The notes under the pieces were generated by a model, which worked only from the letters and a program-made list of their open reading frames with translations, was not told the DNA's origin and did not search any database. From Acidimicrobiia bacterium (lineage in GTDB: Bacteria; Actinomycetota; Acidimicrobiia; Acidimicrobiales; VFJN01), in the NCBI GenBank assembly GCA_009694375.1, contig SHVB01000016.1, positions 189-64,188 on the forward strand: a stretch of 64,000 nucleotides of DNA, read 5' to 3'. The position numbers and the translations under genes were made by a program. The number at the start of each line of letters is the position of its first letter. Position 1 is the first letter of the stretch. Of this stretch, positions 3,943 to 54,285 are shown in pieces.

Positions 3943-3967
3943 GCGGCCTGTGGGCTACCAGAGGGAC

Positions 3968-5457: not shown

Positions 5458-5470
5458 GGTTATTGGTCTC

Positions 5471-6603: not shown

Positions 6604-6609
6604 CGGCCA

Positions 6610-7503: not shown

Positions 7504-7806
7504 GTACGAACCCCCTGATCCCGTCCAGCGCCCATGTGGCTGCCAGCAGTACCCATAGCGTAGGCACAACCGGCTACCGGTGCCAACAACCTCGCTAGGG
7601 TCCGCCAGATGGAGCCAATCGGGCAGTGCGACAGTTGCGGGGATGAAGGGGTGGGGGTGGTGGCCCTGCACCGGATCTACCTGACCCCCGAGGCCGGCGA
7701 ACAAACCCCCACGATGGCGCTGCAGCCATCTCTGGAGCGCTGGTGCTTCTCGTGCCGAACGTCCTACCCGCACCAACTGCTGGACTAACGCCAGCGCGGT
7801 AACCCA

Positions 7807-10444: not shown

Positions 10445-10591
10445 CCTCGGAGGCTAGGCCAGTGCATCGGGATTTACCCGGCACCCCGGGGGTGTGCCAT
10501 ACGGGGTTGACGAATCGCCGCCACTGCTAGATAGTGTTCGTTACATCGATTCGATACGTCATCCTGATGTACTGTTGATGCCTCCTCTCCT

Positions 10592-12288: not shown

Positions 12289-12356
12289 CGCACGAACCCG
12301 CGGTGCACCGCGAGATCAGACAAGCACCGTGGGGCGCGTCCGGGCAGACTGCAGCG

Positions 12357-13046: not shown

Positions 13047-13078
13047 TCGCCCACTCCCCGCCGAGCATCGCCATCGGA

Positions 13079-14485: not shown

Positions 14486-14544
14486 GGGTGAGGAGGGTAG
14501 GCGCAGAGCCCTGCGTCTTCCGAACCGATATGACCAAGGCCCCC

Positions 14545-15627: not shown

Positions 15628-15716
15628 AGGGACTTCATCGGCAGATCACCGCGCCTTCTAAACCCCCCCTTCGGTGGCGGCCCAACCACCCTCGGGCCCA
15701 GACCGCCGGCAAGCCC

Positions 15717-16832
15717 TCAGAGCGAGGGCGTGCACTCGGCTTGGATGCGGCTCGCCTGAGCCACCACCTCGCGCCCCGGCCCCCCACTGGTAGGCGGTTC
15801 GGGCACCAGACGCTCACCGGCCATAGCCGCCACGCACGCGGCGGCCGACAGGCGAAGGGCCTCTAGGTCGTAGCCGCCCTCCAAGAACACGATCCGACGA
15901 CCCGGCGGCACAAGGGTCAACAGGGCCGCCGTGAGGTCGGCGTAGTCGCCTGCCGAGAGGCCAAGATCGGTGATGGGATCCGCCCGGTGGGCGTCGAACC
16001 CAGCCGAGATAAGCAACCAGGTGGGTTGAAATACGGCCGCAAACGGGGCGATCACCTCGTCCACGCCGGCCCGATATGCATCACCGGTGGCACCGGCCGG
16101 TAGGGGCAGATTGTGCGTGGTCCCCCACCCTGCCCCGCCCCCGATATCCCCCAACGCACCTGAGCCCGGGTAAAGCGGGTACTGGTGGTAGGAGATGTAC
16201 GCCACGTCGGGATCGGCCCAGAACACGTCCTGGGTGCCGTTGCCATGATGGGCGTCGTAATCCACCACCAGCACGCGCTCACCCTGGTCGGCCAGGGCCG
16301 CCGCGGTAACCGCCACGTTGTTGAAGAGACAAAACCCCATGGAGCGCGTCGACGTGGCGTGATGACCAGGGGGCCGCACGGCACAAAACGCGCTATCGGC
16401 AGCCCCCGACATGAGGGCCTCAACCGCCGTGAGTCCTGCGCCCGCCGCCAGGATCGCGGCCTCATAGGAGTGCTCGCTCATCGCCGTATCGGCATCCAAC
16501 CAACCTCCTCCCCCGGCCCCCATGGCCGCCACGCGCGCCACCAGCGCGGGATCGTGAGCAAGTTCCAACTCGTCCAGCGTGGCGGGCCGGGGCCCCATCG
16601 GCCGCAGGGCCTCCCCCAAGCCGGCCTCGTGGATGCCCTCAAGTACCGCCCGCAGGCGCTCCGGCCGCTCGGGATGAGCACGACCGTTGTCATGGTCGAG
16701 ATAGCGCGGATGGGTGATGAACACGACGTCGGCCACGAAAGCGAGCGTACCCACCAGAGCCGCGCCGGTACCGTGGCGGTATGACTGGGCATCGCATCCT
16801 CGCGGGAGCAAATTCCAAACTCCGCGTGACAC
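15717..16832 (-). CDS. histone deacetylase-family (AcuC/AphA-like) deacetylase
   Basis: RPPGHHA, VVDYDAHHGNGTQ and GFDAH motifs. The true start is probably internal (GTG codons near VGTLAFVADVVFITHP). Confidence 0.8.
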   Translation of the reverse strand: MSRGVWNLLPRGCDAQSYRHGTGAALVGTLAFVADVVFITHPRYLDHDNGRAHPERPERLRAVLEGIHEAGLGEALRPMGPRPATLDELELAHDPALVARVAAMGAGGGGWLDADTAMSEHSYEAAILAAGAGLTAVEALMSGAADSAFCAVRPPGHHATSTRSMGFCLFNNVAVTAAALADQGERVLVVDYDAHHGNGTQDVFWADPDVAYISYHQYPLYPGSGALGDIGGGAGWGTTHNLPLPAGATGDAYRAGVDEVIAPFAAVFQPTWLLISAGFDAHRADPITDLGLSAGDYADLTAALLTLVPPGRRIVFLEGGYDLEALRLSAAACVAAMAGERLVPEPPTSGGPGREVVAQASRIQAECTPSL

Positions 16833-17506
16833 CCTGGCGAGGTGATGTGACTACCGCCTACCTCACTCCCACGCGCGGTCGCCCTTCACTCGCCGTCATC
16901 GAACAGTGCCTGAGCGAGTTGCCCGGTGCGGGATACAACACCGCCATCACCGCCGCCCTGACCAGCGTTGACCAAATCCCCTTTCTGCAGTCGGGGTTCA
17001 GCGTGCTCGAACGCCTCCACCTCCTCAAGCGCACCCTCTACGACATCCCCCGTCCGCGCGTGTCCAACGTGGAACTTCGCCGAACACGACCAGCCGAGCG
17101 GCCGGCCGTCCTCGCCATTGACGCGGCGTCATTCCCCCCCTTCTGGCGCCTCGACGACTCCGGCCTCACCGATGCCATTGCCGCCACCCCCTCAGCCCGG
17201 CTGGCGGTGGCCCTAACCCGCGGCAATGAGGGCACCATCGTGGGCTATGCCATCACCGGCCGGGCAGGATCCCGGGGCTATCTCCAGCGGCTCGCCGTGG
17301 ACCCCGAGGCGCACCGGCAGGGCATTGGCAGCGCGCTGGTCGCCGATGGGCTTCGCTGGCTCCGGCGATGGGGGGCCAGGGAAATCATCGTCAACACCCA
17401 GGAAGGCAACGGCTCGGCGTTGGCGCTCTACGAAAGTCTGGGGTTTCGTATGCAGCCCGACGGACTCGCCGTGCTGCGTCGCTCCCTCGACGGGCCCGCG
17501 CAATGA
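16781..17506 (+). CDS. GNAT family N-acetyltransferase
   Basis: C-terminal acetyl-CoA motif QRLAVDPEAHRQGIGSALV...NGSALALYESLGF. Start uncertain. The stop overlaps the next gene (ATGA at 17503). Confidence 0.65.
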   Translation: MTGHRILAGANSKLRVTPWRGDVTTAYLTPTRGRPSLAVIEQCLSELPGAGYNTAITAALTSVDQIPFLQSGFSVLERLHLLKRTLYDIPRPRVSNVELRRTRPAERPAVLAIDAASFPPFWRLDDSGLTDAIAATPSARLAVALTRGNEGTIVGYAITGRAGSRGYLQRLAVDPEAHRQGIGSALVADGLRWLRRWGAREIIVNTQEGNGSALALYESLGFRMQPDGLAVLRRSLDGPAQ

Positions 17507-19527
17507 CCCGCCGGGCCTTCGGCGCGCTCGTGGTGCTCACCACGGTCCTGGCTGGTCCAACCGCACTACGCGAAGCCGACGCCGCGCCCCGCCAAGCCGA
17601 CGCCTCTATCGAGCTCGTCGCCCAAACGCCCTTGGCCACCCCGGGCTCCGAGTTCTCGGTGCAACTCCGCCTTCCCGGCGTCCCCACCGACGGCAGCGTC
17701 ACCCTGTCGATCCATCAGCGGGTGCGGTCCCGCTCCGAACTGGCTACCACCATCGACGGCAACGGCCTTCGGAGCCAACTGGTCACGATCGTTACGCCAC
17801 TCGCCACCCTGCCGGAGGCCGCCGACGGCACCCGGCGCTTCGCTATCTCCCTGGACCCGAGCACCGGTGGAGTTGCGCTGACCACCAGCGGCGTCTACCC
17901 CCTGGAGATCAGCGCCAAGAACGCAAGCGGCACAGAACTGACCAGCCTCGTCACCCACATGATCGTGCCGCCCGCAGACGAGGCCACTCCGCTACGCGTC
18001 GCGGTCGTAGCCCAGCTCGCCGCGCCGCCGGTCGCCACCGACGGCATCACCGCCGCCATCGACACGGGCGACCTTGACGCCATCGCCGGATTAGTGACCG
18101 CCCTGGGATCGGTCGATAACACCGTTGTCTCCCTGGCGGTCACCCCCCAAACGATCGACAGTCTCGCGGCCCTGGGCAAACCGGCGGCGAACCTGCTCAC
18201 CGGCCTGAAAAAAGCGGCAGCGGGGCGCCCGCTACTCCAGCGGCCCTACGTGAACATCTCCCTTGATGCGCTTGTGGCGGCGGAACTCCAGTACGAACTC
18301 CTTCGTCAGATAGAACGCGGCGACCTCGTACTCACCGACACCTTCGAGAGACCCCCCACCGAAACCACCTGGCTGGCTGGTCCGGACCTGGGTGCCGATG
18401 GGCTATCGGCCCTGCCTGGCCTCGGCGCCCGCCACGCCGTGGTCAGCGACGCTCAGGTTGCGCCACTCCCGGACAACCTCGTCAACCTCTCGCCGGCCCA
18501 GCCGTTTCTGTTGGCAGCCCCTGAGACCGAAAACGACACCGAGGTTGTCCCCTCCGCCGTTGACGCCATGGCCCTTGATCCGGTTGTGATCGACCGCCTC
18601 GAAGGCCCCGGCACCCCCGCCCTGGTGGCCAATCGCGTGCTCACTGAACTCGCCGTGCTCTGGTTCGAACAACCGGGAGTGGAACGCGGAGCAGTCCTCC
18701 CGTTGGACACGACGGTCAACCCCGACACGGTTCGAACCATCCTCACCGGACTCGATGCCGGGGGCGTGTTCTCAACCGTGAGCCTCGCCGACCTGTTTGA
18801 CACGGTTACCCCCCTCCGAGACGCCCGCCGGAACCCCGTGTCCCGTTCCCTCACCCCGACCAGCCTCAACCGCATCGCCCCCTCCGAAGCCAGGGACATC
18901 AAGGCCGACCGATCCATCGTGGAGACCTTCGGTGGCCTAGTTGGAGTCACCAGCCCCCTTGCGGAGGACGCCGACCGACGGTTTCTCCTCGCCACCGCCG
19001 CCGACCTCTCTCGCGTGGACCGCCAAGAGGTGGCCGACGGCGTGGTCAGCACGATCAACGACCTCGTGGCGGGAATCACCGGACCCGAACGATTCGTACT
19101 CACCCTCACCGACCGCAAAGGCACTATCCCCCTCACCCTCCGCAATGACTCGGGGGTCCCCATGAACGTCGTTATCCGCCTGCGTAGCCCCAAACTTGCC
19201 TTCCCCGAGGGAACGACCATCCCCCTCACTTTGGTTGAAACCTCCACCCGCCTCGACATTCCCGTAGTGGCTCGGGCGTCGGGGGCATTCCCCCTCAACA
19301 TCGAAGTCACCTCCCCCGACGGTCAGCGCCAACTCGTGGTGTCCCGCTACACGGTGCGTTCCACCGCCGTGGCGGGAGCCGGCATCGTTTTGTCCATCGG
19401 TGCCGGGTTATTTCTCATGATCTGGTGGGCCCGGCACTGGCGGCGCGCCCGTCGCAGCGGACGCCTCATCGCCACCCCTGACCACCCATCGCATCGCACG
19501 AAGCCTCCCACCACCGCCGGGCAGTAG
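17503..19527 (+). CDS. DUF6049-like exported protein with C-terminal membrane anchor (Rv3909-type)
   Basis: Signal peptide MTRRAFGALVVLTTVLAGPTALREADA and a C-terminal TM segment AGIVLSIGAGLFLMIWW. Its position relative to sigM/trxB matches mycobacterial synteny. The family call is from memory. Confidence 0.55.
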   Translation: MTRRAFGALVVLTTVLAGPTALREADAAPRQADASIELVAQTPLATPGSEFSVQLRLPGVPTDGSVTLSIHQRVRSRSELATTIDGNGLRSQLVTIVTPLATLPEAADGTRRFAISLDPSTGGVALTTSGVYPLEISAKNASGTELTSLVTHMIVPPADEATPLRVAVVAQLAAPPVATDGITAAIDTGDLDAIAGLVTALGSVDNTVVSLAVTPQTIDSLAALGKPAANLLTGLKKAAAGRPLLQRPYVNISLDALVAAELQYELLRQIERGDLVLTDTFERPPTETTWLAGPDLGADGLSALPGLGARHAVVSDAQVAPLPDNLVNLSPAQPFLLAAPETENDTEVVPSAVDAMALDPVVIDRLEGPGTPALVANRVLTELAVLWFEQPGVERGAVLPLDTTVNPDTVRTILTGLDAGGVFSTVSLADLFDTVTPLRDARRNPVSRSLTPTSLNRIAPSEARDIKADRSIVETFGGLVGVTSPLAEDADRRFLLATAADLSRVDRQEVADGVVSTINDLVAGITGPERFVLTLTDRKGTIPLTLRNDSGVPMNVVIRLRSPKLAFPEGTTIPLTLVETSTRLDIPVVARASGAFPLNIEVTSPDGQRQLVVSRYTVRSTAVAGAGIVLSIGAGLFLMIWWARHWRRARRSGRLIATPDHPSHRTKPPTTAGQ

Positions 19528-41640: not shown

Positions 41641-42333
41641 ATGCTTACGGCGATGGTTTCCGATCCCGCTGGCGCATCGATGCCCATTGGCACCCGGGTG
41701 GGCGACGCGGCGACAGAGGAACTTCGTTCTCGGCGTGCCTCTGACGCCGCTCACGGAATCAGTCGGCCGCCGGCGAAGGGGGGCAAAGACCCGTCACGGC
41801 CCGGGAGCAGTCGTGATCGCGTCCGGGCCCGCAAGGTGCAGCGGGTGGTCCGCCACATCGACCCGTGGTCGGTTCTGAAGCTCTCGTTGCTGTTTTTCCT
41901 GGCGCTGGTCGTCATCATCTGTATCGCATTGGCTCTGTTGTGGGGGGGCGCCCGCAGTACCGGCACCCTGGGTGGCGTGGAGGACTTCATCACCGAGGTG
42001 GGGGGCTTCGGCAACTGCCCTGAACCCGTGGGTGAGGTCCCGGCGGTGCCAGCTGTGCCATCCGCTGACCAACCGGTCACCGCCGTCCCCACTGGGGATC
42101 AGAGCTGCGTCGGTGGCGCTGAACTGCAGGACACCTTCCGATTCGAGGACAGGAAGATCTTTGCGGCCGTTGCCCTTGGAGGGTTTGTGCTCGTGTTCGC
42201 CGGTTCGATGGGTGCCGTGGTGATGGCGCTGCTGTTCAACGTGCTGAGCGACCTCACCGGGGGGGTACGGATAACGGTGCTGGAGGAGGATCCCAGCCCC
42301 CGATCGGCCGGTACCGGCTCGCCGGGGCGCTAG
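41641..42333 (+). CDS. DUF3566 domain membrane protein (Rv0007-type)
   Basis: RHIDPWSVLKLSLLFFLALVVIICIALALLW and C-terminal MALLFNVLSDLTGGVRITVLEED. Located between gyrA and tRNA-Ile, as in mycobacteria. Confidence 0.7.
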   Translation: MLTAMVSDPAGASMPIGTRVGDAATEELRSRRASDAAHGISRPPAKGGKDPSRPGSSRDRVRARKVQRVVRHIDPWSVLKLSLLFFLALVVIICIALALLWGGARSTGTLGGVEDFITEVGGFGNCPEPVGEVPAVPAVPSADQPVTAVPTGDQSCVGGAELQDTFRFEDRKIFAAVALGGFVLVFAGSMGAVVMALLFNVLSDLTGGVRITVLEEDPSPRSAGTGSPGR

Positions 42334-42370: not shown

Positions 42371-42447
42371 GGGGCTATAGCTCAGTCGGTTAGAGCGCAT
42401 CCCTGATAAGGATGAGGTCGGAAGTTCGATTCTTCCTAGCCCCACCA
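42371..42447 (+). tRNA. tRNA-Ile (anticodon GAT), CCA encoded
   Basis: Cloverleaf read by hand. Acceptor GGGGCTA/TAGCCCC, D arm GCTC-AGTCGGTTA-GAGC, anticodon arm CATCC-CTGATAA-GGATG, T arm GGAAG-TTCGATT-CTTCC, discriminator A, then CCA. Confidence 0.95.
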
Positions 42448-42458
42448 GTCCTGACCCG
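42399..42458 (+). repeat. attL-like direct repeat (3' half of tRNA-Ile plus 11 bp)
   Basis: Positions 42399-42437 are identical to 45638-45676 (39 of 39). The match extends to 55 of 60 through 42458/45697. Confidence 0.85.
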
Positions 42459-42565
42459 CGAGTCCGTCGCCATACTGCGATGGCCGCCCCGCCCGAACCG
42501 GGCCCAGGCCGCCGTCCTCGAGTGCTGCCGTCGGGTGAGGTCTCAAGGCACCCAACTGCCTCGCC

Positions 42566-43126
42566 TCAGCTGACACGGGGGTCGTCGGCCAGAAGCAGTG
42601 CGAGGGCTTTGCGGGCGCGGTGGATGGCGACGTCGATGGCGCCTGGCTCTTTGCCGAGCTCGGCGGCGATGTCCTTGGTCGACCGGCCGGCTACGTAGCG
42701 GGCTTCGATGAGGAACCGGGCTTCGGGGGACAGGCTGTCCAGGGCTTGCTCGATCACGATCTGCAGGACGGACTGGACGCTGGGGCTCGACATGCCGAGG
42801 GGCAGCTCCTGGACCAGGCGCGCGTAGTGCTGGTCGGGCCCGAAGTCGCCGTCGGCATCTTGTCGCGGTGGAGGAAAGGTTCCCTGCCGGCCGAAGGGAA
42901 CGTCCCGGTGCAGCTTCTTGCCGATGCGGCGGGCGTCGTTGGCGGCGACCTTCCAGACCCACCCATCTCGCTTGTCCGGGTCGATGTCGTCGAGTCCCTC
43001 GATGAGCTCCATCACGGCGTGGTTGGCCGCGCCTTCGAACACCTGGTCATCGCTGGAGATGGTCTTGGCTGCCTTGAGTGCGATCTTTCGGAAGTAGACC
43101 AACTCTTCGTCGCTCAGCTCCCCCAT
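42566..43126 (-). CDS. divergent sigma-70 family (ECF-like, two-domain) sigma factor
   Basis: Region-2-like NHAVMELIEGLDDIDPDKRDGWVWKVAANDARR. Region-4 HTH LSPEARFLIEARYVAGRSTKDIAAELGKEPGAIDVAIHRARKAL. No adjacent anti-sigma gene. Confidence 0.7.
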   Translation of the reverse strand: MGELSDEELVYFRKIALKAAKTISSDDQVFEGAANHAVMELIEGLDDIDPDKRDGWVWKVAANDARRIGKKLHRDVPFGRQGTFPPPRQDADGDFGPDQHYARLVQELPLGMSSPSVQSVLQIVIEQALDSLSPEARFLIEARYVAGRSTKDIAAELGKEPGAIDVAIHRARKALALLLADDPRVS

Positions 43127-43287
43127 GCCCTCGAAGGCTACGGGTCAGGCCGGCCCGCCGCTGGCGACAGCCCGCAAGGGCCCCCGCAAGAGATTCGCGA
43201 GACCCGGTGTAAGAAATCGCCCCTCGGATGACTCCTCTTCATTGAAGGGCACTTGACCCGAGCGCCCCATCGAAAGGAGTCACGAAC

Positions 43288-43881
43288 GTGACCATCAAGC
43301 CCAACCTCGACTTCGTCACCGATCGCATCGCCACCGGCGGCGACCTACCCCATCGCCGGGAGGACGCCGCCGCGGCCCTTCGGGTCTGGCAGGACCTCGG
43401 GATCACCCACGTGATCGATAATCGGCAGGAGTGGACCGACGAGGACCTCGTGGCCCACCTCGCCCCCGAGATGAGGTACCTCTGCAACGGGGTCGCTGAC
43501 GCCGGCAACGGCCAACCGGACCATTGGTTCGACGACGGTGTCGCCTGGGCCCGGGAGGCGTTGAGCGATCCCGACGCCAAGGTGCTCATCCACTGTCACA
43601 TGGGCATCAACCGGGGGCCGTCGTTGGCCTACGCCGTCTTGCTCGATCAGGGCGTCGACCCGGTGGACGCGGTCGACGCCATCCGTACCGCCCGCCCCAT
43701 CGCCGGAGTGTCCTACGCCGAGGACGCCCTCGGTTGGTTCCACCGCCGCCACGACGTCGACCCCGCCCGCCGGTCCGAGGACCGTCGCCGGCTCGCCCAG
43801 TGGCGCCACGAGAACCATATCGACGTCGTTCGCATCATCCGCAGCATCCGCCAGGACGAAGCGGCCGCCCGGGTCGCCTGA
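43288..43881 (+). CDS. dual-specificity / Tyr-phosphatase-like protein (CX5R)
   Basis: Active-site loop VLIHCHMGINRGPS (HCX5R[S/T]). GAAAGGAG ribosome-binding site 8 nt upstream of the GTG at 43288. Confidence 0.7.
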   Translation: MTIKPNLDFVTDRIATGGDLPHRREDAAAALRVWQDLGITHVIDNRQEWTDEDLVAHLAPEMRYLCNGVADAGNGQPDHWFDDGVAWAREALSDPDAKVLIHCHMGINRGPSLAYAVLLDQGVDPVDAVDAIRTARPIAGVSYAEDALGWFHRRHDVDPARRSEDRRRLAQWRHENHIDVVRIIRSIRQDEAAARVA

Positions 43882-43927
43882 CCCGCCACCTATCCGTACC
43901 AACACCCACCCAACCAGGAGATCCCCA

Positions 43928-44035
43928 ATGAGAAGCGTCACCGTCGAGCTCAACGACAACGAGTTCGCCCAGTACGTCACGGACCAGTGGCACTGGAAGC
44001 AGGACTTCACCGATTCCACCGAAGTCTACCGATGA
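43928..44035 (+). CDS. 35-codon micro-ORF (MRSVTVELNDNEFAQYVTDQWHWKQDFTDSTEVYR)
   Basis: AGGAGA ribosome-binding site 6 nt upstream of the ATG. Its stop overlaps the ATG of the next ORF (cgATGAgg at 44032-44035). It falls below the 60-aa cutoff of the supplied ORF track. Confidence 0.4.
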   Translation: MRSVTVELNDNEFAQYVTDQWHWKQDFTDSTEVYR

Positions 44036-45492
44036 GGCCCCGACCCTCGACCCCGAAAGGAACAACCGTGAACGCAGCCAAACCGCCCGTCTGGGACATG
44101 ATCGAGACGCTTACGAGGAGCCGTCTCGTCGTACCGCCCCTCGGATCCACCGACCCCGGCCAGGTCGACGCCTTCGGCCAGTGGCACTGGGGCACCCGCG
44201 ATCTCAACGCCCTGGACGAGCTGTACCTGTTCGACGTCGAGGCGGTCGCCCGGAACATCATCGACCACGGTCCCCTTTTCTCGCTCTCCTACGCCGGCCA
44301 CGGGATCAACAGCTACGCCCTCAGCCTCGTGACCACCGCGCCCACGGGCGATGTCGCCTTTTTCACCCAGGGCGGCCTCGGGGGCGGGTACTCCGACGAG
44401 GACAAGGACATCGCCAGGATCAACGACGCCTACCAACGAATTGCCCGGGAGTCGGCAGAGCTCGACGGCGGCACTCGCACCGACCGGGTCCGCTGGCTGG
44501 TGTTCTCGTCCTTCATGCGCGACGAAACAGGAATCATCGACCTCGATGGGCTCCGAGAGGGGGCGGGGGTCGACTCGGCCCTCGAGTGGATCGACGACAG
44601 CGTCCTCTTCGATGAGCTCAAGGCCCGTCGAGCCGCCGCTGATCCGTCCGCACCCCCGGTGGCCGGGATCGTCCCCCACCTTGCGGAGGTCCTGCGGCGG
44701 CTGAAAGACGACTCGCACCTCGTGATCAACGTTCTTGGATCGGTCCGCTACGTGCAGTTCGCCACCTTCCGACCCAACCTGCGTCTGGAGACCATCGGCA
44801 TCCGCTACCTCGAGCGGGACAACGACGCCATGACCGTCGACCACCTGGTGTGGCTCGCCTACCAGGGGTGGCACGACGCCGATGACGGCGGGAACCTGTG
44901 GCGGGAATGGATTCCGGCCGACGAGGACGAAGCCGCCGCCGCCGCCGTGGAGGTCCTCGTCAAGGTCCACGGCGTCACTGATATCGACCAGATCTGGTTC
45001 CATTCCGAAGACGACGATGCCCTCGCCGCGCTCGACCACTTCTCGCCGCCGAGGCCGGTACCACCGGGGGGCCTGCAACCGACCAACCGATTCCGGGCGG
45101 CAGTGATCAATGCTGCCTTGGGAGGAGAGCCGCTACGGCTGCTTTCCGGGTCCAAGGTCGTCGCGGTGGTCGACTACATCGCTCGTGACGCGGTGCTGGT
45201 GATGCTGGCTCTCGTGGACGGCGAGGTCCTCCGCCGCCACGACGGCCGCTGGCGTGACGACCCCGACTGGGACAAGGTCCTCCCGAAGGCACCGGCCCGG
45301 TCGATCGTCCCGCTCACCCAGGAGCAGTTCGACAAGGTCCGCGTCCAGATTGACCGATCGTCGGCAGGGAAGCCCTGGAAGCCGTTCAAGGCCCCGGACC
45401 TCGAGCGGTATTGGCCCAGTTACTGTCCCAACGACCCGGATCTGTTCGACTGGAGCCAGCTCGACTCCATCGCCGAGCTCCACGAGCGGTGA
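44032..45492 (+). CDS. large orphan protein of unknown function (about 486 aa)
   Basis: Long ORF with coding-like composition. Candidate starts are ATG 43987, ATG 44032 (coupled to the micro-ORF) and GTG 44068 (GAAAGGA ribosome-binding site). I recognise no catalytic motif. The acidic central segment is vaguely YbjN/chaperone-like. Confidence 0.6.
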   Translation: MRPRPSTPKGTTVNAAKPPVWDMIETLTRSRLVVPPLGSTDPGQVDAFGQWHWGTRDLNALDELYLFDVEAVARNIIDHGPLFSLSYAGHGINSYALSLVTTAPTGDVAFFTQGGLGGGYSDEDKDIARINDAYQRIARESAELDGGTRTDRVRWLVFSSFMRDETGIIDLDGLREGAGVDSALEWIDDSVLFDELKARRAAADPSAPPVAGIVPHLAEVLRRLKDDSHLVINVLGSVRYVQFATFRPNLRLETIGIRYLERDNDAMTVDHLVWLAYQGWHDADDGGNLWREWIPADEDEAAAAAVEVLVKVHGVTDIDQIWFHSEDDDALAALDHFSPPRPVPPGGLQPTNRFRAAVINAALGGEPLRLLSGSKVVAVVDYIARDAVLVMLALVDGEVLRRHDGRWRDDPDWDKVLPKAPARSIVPLTQEQFDKVRVQIDRSSAGKPWKPFKAPDLERYWPSYCPNDPDLFDWSQLDSIAELHER

Positions 45493-45637
45493 GGCGGGCT
45501 GAGGGGATGGGGACTGGCGACGACATCGGGCGGGGCGGCTACCCGGCGAAGTGGCAAACAGCGGTTTCTGGCGGTCACCCCCCGTCGCGAAAGACCAGGT
45601 CAGTGGGGATGGCGGTCAATGGCGCGCACCCCCATCG

Positions 45638-45697
45638 ATCCCTGATAAGGATGAGGTCGGAAGTTCGATTCTTCCTCGCCCCACTATCCCTGACCTG
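45638..45697 (+). repeat. attR-like direct repeat (displaced copy of the tRNA-Ile 3' half)
   Basis: See 42399-42458. This copy has no tRNA 5' half upstream of it and carries an acceptor-stem change (TCGCCCC versus TAGCCCC). Confidence 0.85.
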
Positions 45698-45824
45698 TAA
45701 GTTTGCCGTCGCCGGAAGTACCATTCGGCCAAATGACAGTCGTGGGGCGGGATTGGTAGGGTTCGTTGGGGCTAATCGTGCTGCGTTCCCGGTTTTACGC
45801 TGGCGCTTGTCGGGGGGGGGTGTG

Positions 45825-48536
45825 ATGTACGTGGGCACAGTGCGAGCAAGTAAGCGGTGGGCGCTCATAACGGTGCTTCTCGTGGCGGTGGGGCTCGCGG
45901 CGTCGCCACCGTCAGCGTCGGCGCACACCCCGCACGACGACATCTTCGATGTCGCCGTATCACCGGAGTTCAGCTCCGACGACACGCTCCTCGCCATCTC
46001 GCGTGGGCTGTTCATGCGATCCACGGACGCGGGGGTGACCTGGCAGCGCCTCGTAAAGGGGCTCAATAACCTAGCGCAACCTCAAGGGGTGGCCTTCGGC
46101 GGCGGGGTGAGCAGCCGAGCGTGGGCCTTGAGCCGGGACGGCGTCTTTCGCTCGGACGACGGGGGAGTCGCCTGGACACGAGTGATGACCCCGGTTGCCA
46201 ATGACCTCCAAGTGGTGGGTACGACGAGCGCCTCTCGGGATGTTGCCGTCGTCGCGGGCCCGGCCGCTGGTGCGTACATCACCCGCGATGGAGGGGTGTC
46301 GTGGGGGCCACTGGGGAGTTTCGGGGCCGCCGTCACCGCGGTGGCCTTCAAGAAGGCCAGTAGCCAGGTGGTGTTCGCGGGGGACGCCAACGGTGTCCTG
46401 CACATCTCGGGCACTGGCGGGGCGGCCTGGTTCAACTACCCACTGGCGGGGGCCGGAGCGATCACGTCGATCGCGGTGTCTCCGTCCTTCTCGACCGACG
46501 GCCTCGCGTTGATCGGCACCAATACTGGCGGCGTCCTCCGGTGGAACAATTTCACCAAGACGGCCACTTCGGTCAACAGCGGCCTCACGGACCCGCGGGT
46601 GACCTCCGTGACGTACTCCGCCGATTACGCCTGGGACTCCACGGTGTTCGCGTCGACCTGGACCGGCGGGTTGTTCGTCTCGGGTGACCGGGGGAGCACC
46701 TGGAGCGCGTCGAACAGCGGTCTGGTGTGGGATCCCCAACCGACCCAGATTGCCTTCCAGGACCGTCCGAACTTCGGCCGGGTGGTGAGCGCGCTGACGG
46801 ACCAGGTCACCCGGACTCAGACCGTTTTCCTGGCTGCCTTCGTGGGGCTGTACGCCTCTGACAACCGGGGGGCATCCTGGGCCGAGAGCGAGACCCTCAC
46901 CTCGAGCATCCTCGTGGGCCTATCGCTCTCCCCGCAGTACGGCACGAACCGGAAGGTGGCCATCTCCACCTACTCGAACGGCGCCTTCACCTCGGCCGAC
47001 GCGGGCGCAACCTGGTCGGAGAGCAACCTGGGGCTGGCCCAACGGGGCTTCTGGGATGCCGAGCCGGATGGGTACGCTCGGTTGTACAACATCGCCTACG
47101 CGCCCCCGGTGGCCGGGCGGTCCTGGTTGTACTCCTCGGTGGCCACCCACGGCGGGAGTCCCGGCGGCGTGCTGCGCTCGAGTGACGGCGGCGCCTCATG
47201 GTCGCGCACGTCCGTGCCGGGGTTCAGCAGCCCTGACTTCGATACCCACATCCCCTTCGTGCTGCCATCGCCGAACTTCGCCAACGATCGTTCCGTCCTG
47301 ATGGTCGATGGTGGCAATGGCTTCGTCAACCGCTCCGTGGACGAGGGCGCTTCGTTCCAGCGGGTCGGCACGATCCCGTTCCAGCCGCGGTGCCTCCAGG
47401 CCTCGCCCAACTTCGCCGCCGACCAGCGCCTGTTGGTCTGCACCAGTCGCGGTGTCTACGTGAGCACCGACCTCGGTGCGACGTGGTCCCCGACGGCGAG
47501 CTTGAACATGACGGGGCTTGCGGTGGTCGTGAGAAGCGGCGTCAGCGAGACCTGGCTCGCCGCCACCACGACCGGGCTGTTTCGGAGTACCAACCGAGGG
47601 GTGTCGTGGACGCGAGCGTCGCTGCCGTCGTCGGTCCCGGCCACGGCTGAGGTCGTGTCGGTGGCCAGCTCGCCCCCGTCCAGCGGGCCCGGCACCGTTC
47701 TCGTCAGCATCCGTGGGCGAGGTCTGCTCCGCTCCACCGACGGAGGCGCCACCTTCGGTGCCCTACTGACCGCGCTCCTGGATGCCAACGAGCAGCTCGA
47801 CAACTCCAACGCCAAGCCCACGGCGTCGGCGATCGCCTTCTCCCCGGTCTTCGAGGCCGACCGGACCGTGTTCGGCTACTCCAACGATCACCTGTTCCGT
47901 TCCACCGACGGGGGGGCCACGTGGGTGCGGGTGGTCTTCCCACGCGCCACGCACACGGGCCCCTTTCCCGTGGCCCCCTCCGCCCCGGTGATGGGAACCG
48001 CCACCAGCAGCAGTGGGTCCGCATCGGTCACCTTCACCCCATCCGGCGCCGGAGGGGCCCCCGCGGTTCGCTTCGACAGCACCTGCACCTCGACCAACGG
48101 AGGAGTCACGGGCGGCGGGTCGGGCCCATCGAGCCCAGTGATGGCAAGCGGCTTGACCAACGGCAAGACCTACACGTGTCGAGTGACGGCGACGAACGCG
48201 GGAGGCACCAGTGCCCCGTCAGGATCGTCCAACGCCGTCGTACCGATCGCCGTACCATCGGCCCCGCTGTCGGTGACGGCCGTGGCTGGGCCGGGACAGG
48301 CAACGGTCTCCTGGACGGTGCCGTCGTCGGACGGGGGCTCTCCCATCACCGGATACACGGTGACCCCCTACGTCGGGTATTTCGTCCTGCCTTCGACGAC
48401 ATTCGGTCCGGCGAGCACGAGCCAGACGCTCACGGGCCTCACGAACGGAACCTCCTATCGGTTCAGCGTGATCGCGATCAACGGCGCTGGAGCGAGCGCA
48501 CGGTCCACGCTGTCGAACCTCGTTGTTCCCGCCTGA
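45825..48536 (+). CDS. secreted Asp-box (BNR) repeat beta-propeller protein with two C-terminal fibronectin type III domains
   Basis: Signal peptide MYVGTVRASKRWALITVLLVAVGLAASPPSASA. About 13 S-x-D-x-G-x-T/S-W repeats (STDAGVTWQRL, SDDGGVAWTRV, SSDGGASWSRT, STDGGATWVRV and others). FN3-like segments PSAP...YTCRVTATNAGG and PSAP...SYRFSVIAINGAG. Confidence 0.8.
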   Translation: MYVGTVRASKRWALITVLLVAVGLAASPPSASAHTPHDDIFDVAVSPEFSSDDTLLAISRGLFMRSTDAGVTWQRLVKGLNNLAQPQGVAFGGGVSSRAWALSRDGVFRSDDGGVAWTRVMTPVANDLQVVGTTSASRDVAVVAGPAAGAYITRDGGVSWGPLGSFGAAVTAVAFKKASSQVVFAGDANGVLHISGTGGAAWFNYPLAGAGAITSIAVSPSFSTDGLALIGTNTGGVLRWNNFTKTATSVNSGLTDPRVTSVTYSADYAWDSTVFASTWTGGLFVSGDRGSTWSASNSGLVWDPQPTQIAFQDRPNFGRVVSALTDQVTRTQTVFLAAFVGLYASDNRGASWAESETLTSSILVGLSLSPQYGTNRKVAISTYSNGAFTSADAGATWSESNLGLAQRGFWDAEPDGYARLYNIAYAPPVAGRSWLYSSVATHGGSPGGVLRSSDGGASWSRTSVPGFSSPDFDTHIPFVLPSPNFANDRSVLMVDGGNGFVNRSVDEGASFQRVGTIPFQPRCLQASPNFAADQRLLVCTSRGVYVSTDLGATWSPTASLNMTGLAVVVRSGVSETWLAATTTGLFRSTNRGVSWTRASLPSSVPATAEVVSVASSPPSSGPGTVLVSIRGRGLLRSTDGGATFGALLTALLDANEQLDNSNAKPTASAIAFSPVFEADRTVFGYSNDHLFRSTDGGATWVRVVFPRATHTGPFPVAPSAPVMGTATSSSGSASVTFTPSGAGGAPAVRFDSTCTSTNGGVTGGGSGPSSPVMASGLTNGKTYTCRVTATNAGGTSAPSGSSNAVVPIAVPSAPLSVTAVAGPGQATVSWTVPSSDGGSPITGYTVTPYVGYFVLPSTTFGPASTSQTLTGLTNGTSYRFSVIAINGAGASARSTLSNLVVPA

Positions 48537-48637: not shown

Positions 48638-48775
48638 ATGGCCTTGTTTCGCCGTGCGGTTGTTGCAGTGGGGGTGGCCAGCATCGTCGCGACGGTCCTT
48701 CGTCTCCGAGGGAGCGGTGGAACCCCTCCCCAATACGGGGGCTGGCGTGAACTGTCGGGCCCGGATCTCGAATGA
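48638..48775 (+). CDS. 45-codon small ORF (MALFRRAVVAVGVASIVATVLRLRGSGGTPPQYGGWRELSGPDLE)
   Basis: GAAGGAGAA ribosome-binding site 7 nt upstream. One hydrophobic helix. The stop overlaps the ATG of the next gene (aATGAgg at 48772-48775). Confidence 0.4.
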   Translation: MALFRRAVVAVGVASIVATVLRLRGSGGTPPQYGGWRELSGPDLE

Positions 48776-49791: not shown

Positions 49792-51090
49792 ATGAAGCCG
49801 AGCCAAGCGTTGTCTCTTGATCAGATCGATTTGTCTGACCCTCAATTCTGGGCCGGCCCGGTAGCGGACAGGGAAGGGGCCTTCCTTACGCTTCGGGAGC
49901 AGGATCCGATCCGGTTCTTCAAGGAGCCGATCGTGTCGGAGACCTTCCCGCCGGGGCCGGGTTTCTATTCGCTCACCCGCCACGCCGATGTGCTCGAAGC
50001 CAGCAAACGCCCGGCGGTGTTCTGCTCCAGTCAGGGCACCAACATTCCCGACATGCCCACCGAGTTCTTGGAGTTTCTCGGTTCCATGATCAACATGGAC
50101 GATCCCAAGCACGCCCGCATGCGACGCATCGTGTCGAGGGGGTTCACGCCGCGCCAACTCGATCAGATGAAGGGCGACGTTGAGGCCACGGCGGCGGGGA
50201 TCGTCAACGATGTGATCGAGCGGGGCGAAGGCGACTTTGTGACCGAGGTGGCCGCCACCCTGCCCCTGCGGATCATCGTGGACATGATGGGAATCCCCCG
50301 CAGCCAGGAGCGGTTCATTTTCGATCGCACCAACATCATCCTGGGGCTTGGCGATGCCGAATACGTGCCCGATCAGACCGAGTCGGGGATTATGACAGCG
50401 CTAATAATCGCCGCTCAAGAGTTGACGCAACTCATCACTGAATTGAGCGAGGCCCGGATGAAGAATCCGCAGGAGGACCTGACCACGGCTCTGATCACCG
50501 CCGAGGTAGACGGGGAAAGCCTCACTCCCGCCGAGGTGGCATCGTTCTTCCTGCTGCTGGTGGCAGCGGGCAATGAGACCACCCGCAACGCCATTTCCCA
50601 CGGCATGCAGGCTCTGTCGGAGTATCCCGATCAGATGGCCCGATGGCAGGCCGACTTCGACGGACTGGCCCCGACGGCGGTGGAAGAGATCGTTCGGTGG
50701 GCCACGCCGGTGATCCACTTTCGGCGTACCTGCACGGCCGACGGCGTGCGCATCGGTGAGCAGGAACTCAACGCCGGCGACAAGGTGGTGCTCTGGTATT
50801 GCTCCGCCAATCGGGACGAGGCCGTGTTTGACGATCCGTTTTCCTTCGATGTGGGCCGCACCCCTAACGATCACCTGGGGTTTGGCGGTCCGGGTCCCCA
50901 TTTCTGTCTCGGTGCTCACCTCGCTCGCCGGGAGATCACCGTGATGTTTCGAGAGTTGTTCAGGCGGATGCCCGACATCCACACGGTGGGTGAACCCGAC
51001 CGGCTCCAGTCGAACTTCATCAACGGGATCAAGCACCTGCCGACGCGATGGACGCCAGGGCCGAAGGTCAAACATCGCATCGGTAGTTAG
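49792..51090 (+). CDS. cytochrome P450 (CYP124/125-like)
   Basis: I-helix AAGNETT, EEIVRW (ExxR), and the heme loop FGGPGPHFCLGAHLAR. Confidence 0.9.
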   Translation: MKPSQALSLDQIDLSDPQFWAGPVADREGAFLTLREQDPIRFFKEPIVSETFPPGPGFYSLTRHADVLEASKRPAVFCSSQGTNIPDMPTEFLEFLGSMINMDDPKHARMRRIVSRGFTPRQLDQMKGDVEATAAGIVNDVIERGEGDFVTEVAATLPLRIIVDMMGIPRSQERFIFDRTNIILGLGDAEYVPDQTESGIMTALIIAAQELTQLITELSEARMKNPQEDLTTALITAEVDGESLTPAEVASFFLLLVAAGNETTRNAISHGMQALSEYPDQMARWQADFDGLAPTAVEEIVRWATPVIHFRRTCTADGVRIGEQELNAGDKVVLWYCSANRDEAVFDDPFSFDVGRTPNDHLGFGGPGPHFCLGAHLARREITVMFRELFRRMPDIHTVGEPDRLQSNFINGIKHLPTRWTPGPKVKHRIGS

Positions 51091-51133
51091 ACCGCAGCGC
51101 CCGCCGGCACCGCCGCAGGTCCGTCGCGGGTCG

Positions 51134-53515
51134 TCAGGCTGCCAGCACCGCCACTACAACGACCAGGACCGCGAAGGACCCGACGACCCGCGCCGCGATC
51201 GACTCGAACGGTCGCCAGGCCCCGAGGCGTCGGCGTCGAAGAAACGTGAGTCCAGCGAACGCGAGGGCTGCGCAGCCCAGGCCCGCCAGCAACGGCCGTG
51301 CAATCGCGCGACCCACCGGGGGGGCGGCCGACTGCTTGTCCGGCCGCCCGTGGTGGAGATCCGAGGGATCGATCATGGGCAGCAATCCGCCGGGAGCAGC
51401 CTCGACGGCGGTGTCGTGGGTGCTGAGCGGCAGCACCAGCGACTCCCATGTCTCGCCGCCATCCGTGGACTTGACTACGGCTGTGCCCGCTTGCCCAAAG
51501 ATGGTGTGATCGTGCTGGAAGTCTGGGGAGAAGAGGATCGCCTCGGTTGCGCCGTGATAGAAGTTGGCGAGGACGATGTTGCGCTCCAGCAACGCCTCTC
51601 CAGTGGGAGCAAAGGTCGCCCCGCCGTCTGCTGACCGGAACAGACCACGGCCCCGCACGCTCACCAGGAGGGTTCCGTCGCTCGCGAACTCTGGGGAGAC
51701 GGCTACGGCCTCGATGCTGCTTGTTGGGCTGACACCGCTGATCGTGACCGGGGTCCAGCCCGTTCCGTCGGTGGCGTAGAGCCCGTTGGTGGTGCCGGCG
51801 AAGACGCGGCCCGAGTCGGCATAGTCCGGAGAGATGGCCAAGCTGGTCACCCGCTGACCGCCCAGCCCGATGCGCTCCCAGGTGCGACCAGCGTCCGCGC
51901 TGCGCTGCATCCCGGTGGAGGTGCCCGCTATGACGGTGTGATCAGATGCAAAGGCAGGGGAGGTCGCGATCGCTGAGACGGGTGAGTCCATCTGGCCGAC
52001 CTTGGCGAACTCCGATCCACCGTTCCTCGAACGGAACACCTTGCCCCTGCTCGACCCGAGAAGGACCGTTTGGTCTTGGGCGTAGGCGGACGAAAAGGCC
52101 CAGAGAGTGTAGTCGGGCGGCTCCTCTCCCTCCACCACGAGGCCATCTGGGATCTGCGCACGCCACTGGTCTCCCGCCGTCTCGGATCGCAACACGTAGC
52201 CGCGCTCGCTGGCGAAGAGGGTGCGGTCAGAGGCGAATGACGGCGAGATGCCGATGCTGGTCAGCCGCGCGTAGTACTCCTCGGACCGAGTCCAGACGCC
52301 CTGGTAAGCGAGACCGTCGTTGATCGCCGTCCACGTACGGCCTCCATCCTCCGAGAGAAACGCTCCGTTGAGGTAGGTGGCCACCGCGATCGTCGTGTCC
52401 TCCCCGTACGAGGAGGAGATCGCCATGCTGCTGATGTTGCGCGAGGACTGCGTCTCCAGCTCTTGCCACATCCCGGCGTCGGAGGAGCGGAAGAGCCCCT
52501 CAAACGCGCCGAGGAAGAGGATCGGCCGGATGCCAACCGTCGTGTTGGAGACGCGCAACGGCCCGAACTGGGATCGCCCGAGGAGGTCGGCCTGCCGGTT
52601 CGTCGTGAGCCCGTCAACTTCGTCAGACCAGGAAGCGCCGCCATCCCCGGATGTGAAGACCCCTGTTGACCACGTGCTCACCCAAAGGGTCTGGTCGACC
52701 GCGAAGTGAGGAGACACGGCGACGGACACGATTGAGGCATCGGTGATGCCGGTACCGACGGGTTCGAACGATTGAGCATCGTCGGTGGAGTGGAAGAGAC
52801 CCTTGTCGTGCGTGGCCACGAAGATCGAGTGGCCGCCAGAGGTGTTGGGTGACGCGACGATCGCGGTGATGCCTCCCGACCCAGGAAAGTCGGCGATCTT
52901 GCGCCAGGTGGACCCGCCGTCGCGCGACATCCTCACCGGTCCGCCTTCCGACCCGCTCAGAACCACCTCAGGGTCATCGTTGGCGAACTCGATCACACTC
53001 GCCGCGCCGGCGTCGGAGACGGTCGACCAGCTCAGGCCGCCGTCTTCCGTTCGGACCACGGTGGGCACACCATTGGTCTCGATCGTGGCGAAGAGGTTGT
53101 CCGATGAGCCTGGGGAGATGGACAGGGAACGAACATCGAGGGTGGGGAGGCCGCGGCTTCTGTTGGCCCAGGTCTGCCCGCCATCGCTCGACCGGTAGAT
53201 GCCGTCGCCTCGAGATCCGAGGAACAGCACCTGCTTGTTCTGTGGCGACACCTCGACGGCACGCAGCTGAAATCGATTGTCGAGTCCTCGGACGAGTCGG
53301 GTCCACGTATCACCGCCGTCATCTGACTTGAGAAGGGACTCCCGGACGATGGCGAACAGGGTGTGGTCACCCTCGAAGTCCGGCGAGAGCTCGACGTCGG
53401 CGACGACATCATGGGGAGTGTGGGCCGAAGCGGGCCCGGTGACACAGCACACGGTGGCGATGACGGCCACAACGACAGCACACCGGCCCGCCAAGCCCGA
53501 TCTGATCGCTGCCAC
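51134..53515 (-). CDS. membrane-anchored Asp-box (BNR) repeat double-propeller protein, paralog of 45825-48536
   Basis: Signal peptide ending PASA, then HTPHDVVADVELSPDF. About 14 Asp-box repeats (SDDGGDTWTRL, SSDGGQTWANR, SEDGGRTWTAI, STDGGETWESL and others). C-terminal hydrophobic anchors. GTG start. Confidence 0.8.
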   Translation of the reverse strand: MAAIRSGLAGRCAVVVAVIATVCCVTGPASAHTPHDVVADVELSPDFEGDHTLFAIVRESLLKSDDGGDTWTRLVRGLDNRFQLRAVEVSPQNKQVLFLGSRGDGIYRSSDGGQTWANRSRGLPTLDVRSLSISPGSSDNLFATIETNGVPTVVRTEDGGLSWSTVSDAGAASVIEFANDDPEVVLSGSEGGPVRMSRDGGSTWRKIADFPGSGGITAIVASPNTSGGHSIFVATHDKGLFHSTDDAQSFEPVGTGITDASIVSVAVSPHFAVDQTLWVSTWSTGVFTSGDGGASWSDEVDGLTTNRQADLLGRSQFGPLRVSNTTVGIRPILFLGAFEGLFRSSDAGMWQELETQSSRNISSMAISSSYGEDTTIAVATYLNGAFLSEDGGRTWTAINDGLAYQGVWTRSEEYYARLTSIGISPSFASDRTLFASERGYVLRSETAGDQWRAQIPDGLVVEGEEPPDYTLWAFSSAYAQDQTVLLGSSRGKVFRSRNGGSEFAKVGQMDSPVSAIATSPAFASDHTVIAGTSTGMQRSADAGRTWERIGLGGQRVTSLAISPDYADSGRVFAGTTNGLYATDGTGWTPVTISGVSPTSSIEAVAVSPEFASDGTLLVSVRGRGLFRSADGGATFAPTGEALLERNIVLANFYHGATEAILFSPDFQHDHTIFGQAGTAVVKSTDGGETWESLVLPLSTHDTAVEAAPGGLLPMIDPSDLHHGRPDKQSAAPPVGRAIARPLLAGLGCAALAFAGLTFLRRRRLGAWRPFESIAARVVGSFAVLVVVVAVLAA

Positions 53516-53709
53516 CGATGATCAACTCTCTTTCAAAACCCTTGAGAGGCGACAACGCCTGCTATCCAATGGCTAGCCTACGTCGCTCTGTCGACCTGCC
53601 TCGTCGATCGAAGCCCGCCCAGCCCGCTGCTGGCATCGCCGCGATGTCGGACGTGGCAACGCTCTACGGGTGCGGCGCCCATAGCGCCAGTGGCGTGTAC
53701 TCTCCGACG

Positions 53710-54285
53710 ATGCTCCGCCAGCTTCTTCTCGCTGGCGTGGTCACGTCCACTCTGATCGTCACCGCCTGCGGAGGCGACGATGGTGGAGCAGCGGGTGGTG
53801 AGGAAACCAACGTGGAGATCGGGCCCGCCGCTGAGGGGATCGAGGGTGTGATGGCCATCCGGGTACCGGACAACACCCACACGGAATCACCGGTGGACTA
53901 CGGGCTGAGCCCTCCCGCCGGCGGTGTCCACAACCCCGTCTGGTTGAACTGTGGCTTCTATGACAAGGCGTCACCCGCTGAGCATCTGGTGCACGATCTG
54001 GAGCACGGGGCCGTGTGGCTCGCGTATTCGCCGGATCTTCCGGCGGCGGACATCAACGTTATTCACAACTTGGCCCGCACCTCTCCCAGGATTGTGGCCA
54101 CGCCGTATCCCGACCTCGCCGATGGGGTGGCCGTGGTCGCTACCGCGTGGGCCCGTCAACTCACCCTCGACTCCGTCGCCGATCCCCGCATTGAGAAGTT
54201 CCTGGACCAATACACCGACGGCGATCAGGCCCCCGAGGCCGGGACCACCTGCCTTGAGTCCCCCCTGGGCACGCCGATTCCCTAG
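53710..54285 (+). CDS. DUF3105-like lipoprotein
   Basis: Lipobox LIVTAC after MLRQLLLAGVVTSTL. Conserved HNPVWLNCGFYD...HDLEHGAVWLAY. Confidence 0.6.
   Translation: MLRQLLLAGVVTSTLIVTACGGDDGGAAGGEETNVEIGPAAEGIEGVMAIRVPDNTHTESPVDYGLSPPAGGVHNPVWLNCGFYDKASPAEHLVHDLEHGAVWLAYSPDLPAADINVIHNLARTSPRIVATPYPDLADGVAVVATAWARQLTLDSVADPRIEKFLDQYTDGDQAPEAGTTCLESPLGTPIP

Follow-up and report, generated by a model that had tools for sequence, protein, structure and literature searches.

Cis-mobilizable elements (CIMEs) and decayed islands have been defined for derivatives of ICEs (integrative and conjugative elements; ICEberg 2.0, PMC6323972). Here we compare with these classes a small islet found in a window of 64,000 nucleotides from an Acidimicrobiia bacterium (assembly GCA_009694375.1, contig SHVB01000016.1, positions 189 to 64,188 of the forward strand; coordinates below are those of the window unless a related locus, numbered L001 and so on, is named). 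The islet lies between two copies of the 3′ part of a tRNA-Ile(GAT) gene and carries four ORFs, three of which form a conserved trio: a sigma factor gene, a phosphatase gene and a gene for a 474-aa protein, ORF D. Probably the islet is what remains, immobilised and CIME-like, of a larger integrative element (itself probably conjugative) in a tRNA-Ile hotspot. As in CIMEs, it is flanked by attL/attR-type repeats, its four ORFs include no integration or conjugation genes, it shows signs of derivation from a larger element by deletion, and an accretion-like arrangement is seen at the same site (in L020). It differs in that, although both cores are present, the arm repeats of the window are down to one degenerate copy and the right arm abuts a gene stump; no cognate ICE was found, the trio lying near genes of type IV secretion system (T4SS) type in L003 and L004; and it comes from an uncultured member of the Acidimicrobiales instead of a Firmicute. 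Unlike an ICE, the islet has no integrase, relaxase or type IV secretion genes that family scans of the four ORFs could find between its att sites.

For the cargo, the nearest described counterparts are predicted conflict systems. Iyer et al. (2022; PMC9503650, section 3.8) defined the TY-Chap3 domain among predicted systems against viral ADP-ribosylation, which comprise an ADP-ribosylglycohydrolase (ARG), a phosphatase of the rhodanese-phosphatase superfamily, a chaperone of the TY-Chap1-3/SseB/vWA kinds and a Nudix or WYL regulator; these systems are a computational prediction, not an experimental result.

At the same tRNA gene, the locus L044 has an 8.4-kb element (10466–18839 of that locus) between equivalent repeats, with a tyrosine integrase gene directly beside the tRNA and with genes for a Rep protein (PF23343), an HTH/sigma-r4-like protein, a PP2C phosphatase and an ankyrin protein. 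With its integrase and Rep, this element presumably resembles the small integrative plasmids of actinomycetes. It shares with the islet the duplication of the same 3′ part of tRNA-Ile(GAT), with the intact tRNA on the left and the displaced copy on the right, but it has its own integrase beside the tRNA, a core that starts from the anticodon loop and unrelated arms, whereas the islet has no recombinase. It looks like a complete small integrative element, and its pairing of a sigma-like regulator with a phosphatase resembles the cargo of the window.

The duplicated tRNA segment and its slot

ARAGORN found one tRNA gene in the whole window, the intact tRNA-Ile(GAT) on the + strand (42371–42447; Rfam RF00005, 76.9 bits), which marks the attL side. 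Its 3′ part, from the anticodon stem through CCA and into a trailer of ∼16 nt (..CTGACC..), makes up the left copy of the att core (42399–42463, +); the right, displaced copy lies at 45638–45702 (+) and was also found in L001 and L002. A repeat search aligned the two over 65 nt at 89% identity (58/65), and a recount reproduced the figures of the first-pass annotation, the leading 39 nt being exact (39/39) and 55 of 60 positions being identical between 42399–42458 and 45638–45697. A 34-nt probe, with up to three mismatches allowed, matched the window only at these two positions (0.00 matches expected, 100 shuffles). The repeat is no assembly artefact, since close relatives assembled independently, in two cases (L002, and L001 together with L009), have it too.

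A DUF3566 protein scan of species-representative genomes gave 47 Acidimicrobiales loci for comparison. The closest relatives are L009 and L001, contigs of the metagenome-assembled genome Bin_57_4 (GCA_009886035.1), and, equally close, L002, an ENA contig found through ORF D; all have the islet, repeat included, at the position that it takes in the window. Among more distant relatives, the gene order is gyrA, a small ORF, DUF3566, tRNA-Ile, a gene for a 45-aa membrane peptide, an F420-oxidoreductase-like gene and a P450 gene. An empty site, which the first-pass annotation proposed to look for, was found in six of these more distant Acidimicrobiales (L012, L013, L021, L028, L045 and L051), the tRNA standing directly before the 45-aa and F420-like genes and the 45-aa gene beginning 1–46 nt past the tRNA in L013, L021 and L012; none was seen among the closest relatives. 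In the window, this ancestral right neighbour of tRNA-Ile (MALFRRAVV...GGWRELSGPDLE; 48638–48775, +), recognised by synteny, overlaps the start of the F420-oxidoreductase-like gene and is conserved across Acidimicrobiales. In L012, ∼2.2 kb (10577–12762) separate the DUF3566 gene from tRNA-Ile, a distance of <100 nt in other genomes.

Compared with the empty sites, the window has two extra blocks, namely the islet and, right of the second copy, a gene for a secreted BNR/sortilin/fn3 protein (45825–48536, +; Pfam and synteny). The claim that the ORFs between the repeats interrupt a conserved synteny thus stands for the islet, with the amendment that the BNR gene, outside the repeats, is extra as well. 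The BNR gene has the same position in L001, L002, L058 and L059 and a third-codon-position GC content (GC3) of 0.85, raised like that of the islet, and is probably an older insertion. The probe found no third, older att copy to its right within the window, and L061, another context of a BNR homolog, has no tRNA or att copy and is uninformative.

In every locus, a search was made for another copy of the 3′ part of that genome's tRNA. Att-flanked intervals without an internal integrase were found in L042 (10519–14680; 4.1 kb, coding for N-methyl pilin-like and Big_9 proteins) and in L020 (10590–12140; 0.86 kb, with two small minus-strand ORFs), an integrase fragment lying just outside the second copy in the latter. 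L010 (10651–10813) has an exact 49-nt copy of the tRNA 3′ part 37 nt after tRNA-Ile, with nothing between them; the next gene there, on the opposite strand, is for an FtsX/MacB-like permease. L058 and L059 were reached through BNR homologs. The order in L058 is gyrA, DUF3566, tRNA-Ile, a 6.0-kb island (3795–9777), an att copy, the BNR gene, the 45-aa gene and the F420-like gene, and its repeat (62 nt, 95%) begins at the same base as that of the window and has the same CTGACCTGCG trailer. The island encodes HTH, DUF1508, Multi_ubiq, DUF6791-ThiF (E1-like) and PF20137 proteins and small unknown ones, without an integrase; it resembles a ubiquitin-like conjugation (defence-type) system and has tandem CCAGGCCGCGG on both arms. 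In L059, methyltransferase genes and an AAA_30 helicase fragment lie left of the att copy, with the BNR gene downstream. Relatives that lack the ORFs and still carry both repeats, which had been named as evidence against integration, do therefore literally exist (L010, and L058 with unrelated cargo), yet integration is not refuted by them: repeats without this cargo mark a reusable slot, not the private scar of one cassette.

On sequence grounds, the repeat is an att-type integration scar, made of a duplicated tRNA 3′ part, as had been proposed at first pass; we take the scar to be real because distant relatives have empty sites and because an element with integrase and Rep sits in the same tRNA in L044. 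The repeated tRNA 3′ part, the intact tRNA at one end and the unoccupied sites in relatives are all as expected of such a scar. A recombinase gene inside the element beside one end is absent here and present at the same tRNA in L044.

Eroded ends and inheritance of the islet

At its right end, the islet holds a truncated gene. The first 16 codons (MGTGDDIGRGGYPAKW; 45507–45554, +) of the gene downstream of the trio in L003 and L005 are recognisable by translation comparison and blastn; the corresponding residues of the L003/L005 gene are MGADDDIVLGGYPAKW, and its full product is a 555- or 587-aa protein with an RNase_H_2 domain (Pfam). At 45554, the homology to L003 gives way to homology to the right arms of L058 and L059. 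This stump of the downstream gene indicates that the islet is a fragment.

The right arm beside the core (45551–45637, +) contains two TGGCGGTCA motifs, at 45569 and 45610, and is identical, without gaps, to L058 at 59 of 87 positions and to L059 at 64 of 87. Because it is no more conserved (68–74%) than the non-coding flank upstream of the BNR gene (about 72% in the aligned part), the right arm cannot separate functional constraint from shared descent. Two further TGGCGGTCA matches in the window, at 18134 and at 36615 (the latter inside the DciA coding region), were taken as chance. Further out, L058 and L059 have tandem 11-mers, CCAGGCCGCGG, which in L058 and L011 also stand ∼45 nt inside the left end; this placement is what one would expect if the 11-mers were recombinase arm sites flanking an attP core. 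In the window, one degenerate copy is left on the left side (at 42504) and none on the right, and L001, L002 and L009 have none. The degenerate copy belongs to a left-arm remnant that runs from the core to the stop codon of the sigma gene (42464–42565) and whose similarity to the L058 arm is not above shuffle level. L001 and L002 also lack window positions 45511–45604 (∼94 nt) through a deletion between short repeats, G(A/T)GGGGATGG, and this loss is continued erosion of the edge by microhomology deletion.

No recombinase, replication or transfer families were found among the four islet ORFs (Pfam, NCBIfam, PHROGs, PADLOC). The observation made at first pass that there is no recombinase in or next to the islet was borne out further, as none was found in the ∼10-kb flanks in L001 and L002 or, by jackhmmer, in the window. 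When phmmer and jackhmmer, seeded with the L044 integrase, were run on every ORF of 80 aa or more from the window and from all loci, the only hits were in L014, L020, L026 and L044; these searches cover that integrase subfamily only, not every gene of the 64-kb window having been scanned with Pfam.

Between the window and L002, synonymous divergence (dS) is 0.08–0.17 for the three islet genes, and 0.12 (gyrA), 0.19 (F420-like), 0.28 (P450) and 0.06 (BNR) for the flanks, with DUF3566 as an outlier at 0.48. The dS values of the islet, being like those of the flanking genes, therefore fit vertical co-divergence with the chromosome. In the comparison with Bin_57_4, dS is 0.03 for ORF D and 0.165 for the F420-like gene, and this low value for ORF D hints at recent exchange among close strains. 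The DUF3566 gene (41641–42333) has 74% amino acid identity to L002 and L009, as against >99% for gyrA and 96% for the 111-aa ORF, and may represent a patch of local recombination or else a gene that evolves fast beside the hotspot. Over 33925–56000, nucleotide identity to L001, L002 and L009 is ∼91% left of the tRNA, 97–98% in the islet (L001) and ∼95% to the right, and a 2.7-kb stretch (51061–53807) has no match in L001 or L002; such mosaic identity suggests recombination among strains and another variable segment. As for base composition, the deviation from the flanks that had been proposed as a check does not appear in overall GC, in which the islet is like its flanks, and does appear in GC3, which is 0.85–0.89 in the three islet genes, ∼2 standard deviations above the average for 37 other window ORFs (0.75 ± 0.05).

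We propose the following course of events. Through site-specific recombination, a larger element would have inserted itself into the 3′ part of tRNA-Ile(GAT), with duplication of a core of ∼62–65 bp. Deletions would later have taken away the recombinase, whatever transfer genes there were and the greater part of the attP arms, leaving between the cores one functional unit, an ECF-like (extracytoplasmic function) sigma gene with a divergent operon that encodes a Cys-X5-Arg phosphatase and a TY-chaperone-like protein of three domains, and the 16-codon stump of the next gene. The islet would since have been inherited vertically in the lineage, still eroding at its edges, in a tRNA-Ile/att slot that would be a recurrent hotspot with different cargo in related genomes. 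Of the two alternatives left by the first-pass annotation, a decayed island fixed in place is the one that best fits the truncated gene at the right end, the lost arm repeats, the erosion in close relatives and the flank-like divergence.

Several observations weigh against this reading. No parent element combining these arms, this cargo and an integrase was found in IMG/VR, in metagenome contigs or in arm-plus-core scans. L058 has the same ends and full arm repeats without an integrase, which could mean movement in trans. In L003, the type IV secretion genes close to the trio may be part of an adjacent element, and the sigma, phosphatase and chaperone-like functions are predictions only. Finally, host dS between the window and L010 or L058 is ∼0.9–1.5, near saturation, and the core of the second copy is still identical to the genome's own tRNA at 49 of 49 positions in both L010 and L058, the first differences appearing in the trailer. 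A passive old scar should have drifted; cores that are identical despite saturating dS must have been kept alike, which points to gene conversion, recent independent events or continuing (repeated) recombination.

Other explanations for the islet

The same identity of cores and tRNA would suit a second explanation, according to which the islet is a still-mobilisable cassette without an integrase of its own, moved as a strict CIME or by a recombinase whose gene lies elsewhere, and the slot is an exchange site for defence cassettes with the same ends. L058, with the same 62-nt core, trailer and conserved right arm and with tandem 11-mers on both arms, around unrelated cargo and with no integrase, speaks for such exchange; the att-flanked intervals of L042 and L020, also devoid of an internal integrase, and the closeness of ORF D to Bin_57_4 relative to the flanking F420-like gene point in the same direction. 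Yet the window has no right-hand arm repeats and has a gene stump at that very junction, and the further erosion of the arm in the closest relatives argues against selection for mobility. Moreover, an unoccupied site was not observed in any close relative, nor did the loci examined yield an integrase, while the right arm, about as conserved as the non-coding flank upstream of the BNR gene, could be explained by shared descent. We therefore consider continuing mobilisation in trans, the leading rival, unlikely.

Integration without an own recombinase is known from integrative mobile elements exploiting Xer (IMEX), which use the host XerCD, integrate at dif and share conserved site sequences. 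Like them, the islet is integrated, lacks a recombinase of its own and has conserved site sequences, an analogy that bears on mobilisation in trans only; IMEX sit at dif, whereas the islet sits at a tRNA, and no host recombinase is implicated for it.

A broader proposal, rather improbable in our view, is that in one Microthrixaceae-related clade of Acidimicrobiales the tRNA-Ile(GAT) gene beside gyrA/DUF3566 is a docking site for recombinase-less cassettes, which share the 62–65-bp core and the arm motifs (TGGCGGTCA and tandem CCAGGCCGCGG), carry interchangeable conflict modules, and are inserted and exchanged by a recombinase supplied from another place in the genome or from a helper element. 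If this were true, the modules would be the sigma/phosphatase/TY-chaperone trio, the ubiquitin-like system and the methyltransferases; the slot would be somewhat like a single-site integron for defence genes; and the trio of sigma factor, dual-specificity phosphatase (DSP) and TY-Chap3 protein would be a self-regulated defence or counter-defence system of new architecture.

The right copy has also to be considered as a decayed tandem duplicate of tRNA-Ile, kept similar by gene conversion, with homologous or illegitimate recombination, not site-specific integration, having placed the foreign DNA between the copies. The first-pass annotation had described the displaced copy as having no tRNA 5′ half. 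In line with that description, ARAGORN does not call the right copy of the window as a tRNA. The Rfam tRNA model gives, at 45606–45683, a match that is sub-threshold (21.9 bits, gathering cutoff 29, E = 0.3) but, spanning the full length of the model, can also be read in favour of a duplicate. The 33 nt before the right core (GGGGATGGCGGTCAATGGCGCGCACCCCCATCG) weakly resemble a tRNA 5′ half, sharing with it 14 of 28 positions. A duplicate would further be suggested by L059, where ARAGORN calls the equivalent of the right copy as tRNA-Ile, and by L010, where the tRNA is followed by 3 nt, a 34-nt stretch beginning with GGGTGTGG and then the exact 49-nt 3′ half. Against it stand the candidate acceptor 5′ strands, which form only 4–6 of 7 pairs; comparison of the window with L058, L059 and L010 shows no compensatory changes. 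The start of the identity lies in the anticodon arm or close to it, as it does in L044, L042 and L020, whose repeats are integrase-associated, and conservation runs ∼87–140 nt further left, with repeated motifs typical of recombinase arm sites. The state of L010 could be derived by a deletion that joined one CCCCA, at the end of the tRNA, to another, in the arm, and L012, L013 and L021, which branch before the first insertion, have a single tRNA-Ile without a pseudo-copy. The 33 nt upstream of the right core are thus at most a relic of a tRNA-like attP arm, and a decayed tandem tRNA is an improbable origin for the right copy.

A chance match or an assembly artefact as the source of the repeat, with ordinary chromosomal genes for ORFs, would agree with the flank-like overall GC of the islet, but this reading is refuted, and can be dismissed almost with certainty, by the shuffles, by the recurrence of the structure in independent assemblies, by the absence of the ORFs from the same site in many relatives and by the raised GC3 of the islet genes.

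The cargo genes and their relatives

The three cargo genes have the same order in every context recovered, with the sigma factor on the − strand, then the phosphatase and ORF D on the + strand. The sigma factor (186 aa; 42566–43126, −) is of the sigma-70 family and ECF-like, matching TIGR02937 over residues 13–176 (49.5 bits, cutoff 42.9), Pfam Sigma70_r4_2 (4e-13) and phrog_1740; the ECF-type features, sigma regions 2 and 4 in a protein of ∼190 aa, are present. Its gene adjoins the DSP gene in 8 further loci, and no recognisable anti-sigma factor gene is adjacent to it in any trio locus. Upstream of the phosphatase gene stands a promoter-like block, AAGrAA-N11-14-GACTC followed by GAGGGCAC (43211–43234, + in the window), which is invariant in the alignment of 8 loci whose proteins are 50–98% identical. 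Each locus has exactly one such block, always before the phosphatase gene, and a regulon search found that the motif recurs nowhere else in the collected loci. Judged from this conservation, the sigma factor and the block may be a dedicated pair.

The phosphatase (197 aa; 43288–43881, +) has the dual-specificity type of Cys-X5-Arg motif, HCHMGINRG. It matches Pfam DSPc at 6.6e-8 (32.9 bits, just below the cutoff of 33.5), and its nearest solved structures are DUSP26, DUSP13 and VHR (1e-6 to 1e-4). Between it and ORF D, the window has a specific insertion of 138 nt (43901–44038, +), absent in L001, L002 and L003–L008, which contains a 35-aa ORF (43928–44035) with a good Shine-Dalgarno sequence, a match to phrog_34511 (9.6e-6) and a weak tblastn match to a hypothetical protein of Stenotrophomonas phage DLP_6. 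What had been described as a four-ORF cassette is accordingly conserved in three of its ORFs, the fourth being part of the window-specific insertion.

ORF D (44068–45492, +) consists of an N-terminal domain (residues 1–195), a TY-Chap3 match (Pfam PF22552, 9e-13, at ∼204–306, with a conserved block to ∼322) and a C-terminal domain (∼340–470). It has 14 homologs among 5.8e9 proteins; every domain also occurs alone in other proteins and the full-length architecture in ∼4 representative clusters, and an exact look-up of the ORF D of the window found it not on record. The AF2 model of the N domain (pLDDT 92) suggests an alpha-beta3-alpha-beta2-alpha order like that of type III secretion chaperones, with no significant PDB or BFVD match (best E 0.08 and 0.016). 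The full-length model is poor (pLDDT 66) and its Foldseek search was uninformative; a profile search of PDB sequences for the fold of ORF D also gave nothing. A viral origin was rejected, as there are no ORF D relatives in IMG/VR and the arm-plus-core DNA pattern scan found nothing; tblastn with ORF D against phage and plasmid collections gave no match. Nor is the islet a known defence system by PADLOC, which had no match for its ORFs.

Elsewhere, the trio was found in six other contexts, with ORF D identities of 48–85%, inside variable mobile or defence-like DNA; metagenome contigs added only two more short loci (L056 and L057). In L003 and L004, AAA_10, TrbL_3 and NlpC_P60 genes lie a few kb from the trio and, with DUF8175 and a Schlafen/AlbA_2 gene, on one side of it, Tad genes being on the other. 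In L003 (1–8463 and 14645–21428), the closest non-syntenic relative of the trio stands between conjugation-type genes and a Tad/TadE/T2SSF pilus cluster, and the Schlafen/AlbA_2 gene adjoins the sigma gene; the contig does not contain the limits of that element. The surroundings include an AcrVA2-like gene in L005, genes for a methylase, Vsr, a helicase, Macro, REase-ARP, ARPP-1 and Nudix-NrtR in L007, and a very large helicase gene in L008. In L060, a protein with the N domain of ORF D is encoded beside DSPc, TY-Chap2 and NT5C genes; the association thus recurs.

With the ARG-centred systems described above, the islet shares a Cys-X5-Arg phosphatase tightly coupled to TY-Chap3, a pairing kept in 8 loci, as well as a conserved core with variable neighbours (those of L007 and L060 just named), and the module is rare and fast-evolving. 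It differs in several respects. There is no ADP-ribosylglycohydrolase match in the four islet proteins (Pfam/NCBIfam, E ≤ 0.1). In place of a Nudix or WYL repressor, which the islet does not have, stand the divergent ECF-like sigma factor and its promoter-like element; Nudix-NrtR is near the trio only in L007. The TY-Chap3 domain of the islet, moreover, is embedded between two domains without a Pfam family. The expectation that the cargo is an undescribed functional module therefore needs qualifying: the module is rare and uncharacterised, but its phosphatase/TY-Chap3 pairing belongs to a predicted class of conflict systems (PMC9503650), of which the cargo, by its domain content, appears to be a rare, uncharacterised variant. 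The sigma factor would drive the single conserved promoter-like element before the phosphatase operon, and the phosphatase and ORF D would act on a modified (phosphorylated or ADP-ribose-derived) substrate, with a role in conflict with phages or other elements. The dN/dS ratios of the trio are 0.20–0.59, mostly 0.25–0.44, across all comparisons, and the genes have therefore been maintained.

Being a case of textbook island decay at a tRNA hotspot, the islet changes little as far as structure is concerned: the structure is of a known kind, whereas the cargo is rare and uncharacterised. The trio with its promoter-like element is under purifying selection, has no experimental precedent, and offers a compact candidate for testing the predicted phosphatase–chaperone systems. 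For the Acidimicrobiales, uncultured Actinomycetota that form a poorly studied order, the locus reveals a slot adjoining the replication origin that is reused with differing defence-like cargo between the same repeats, usually without an integrase, and this reuse raises the testable question of how such cassettes turn over.

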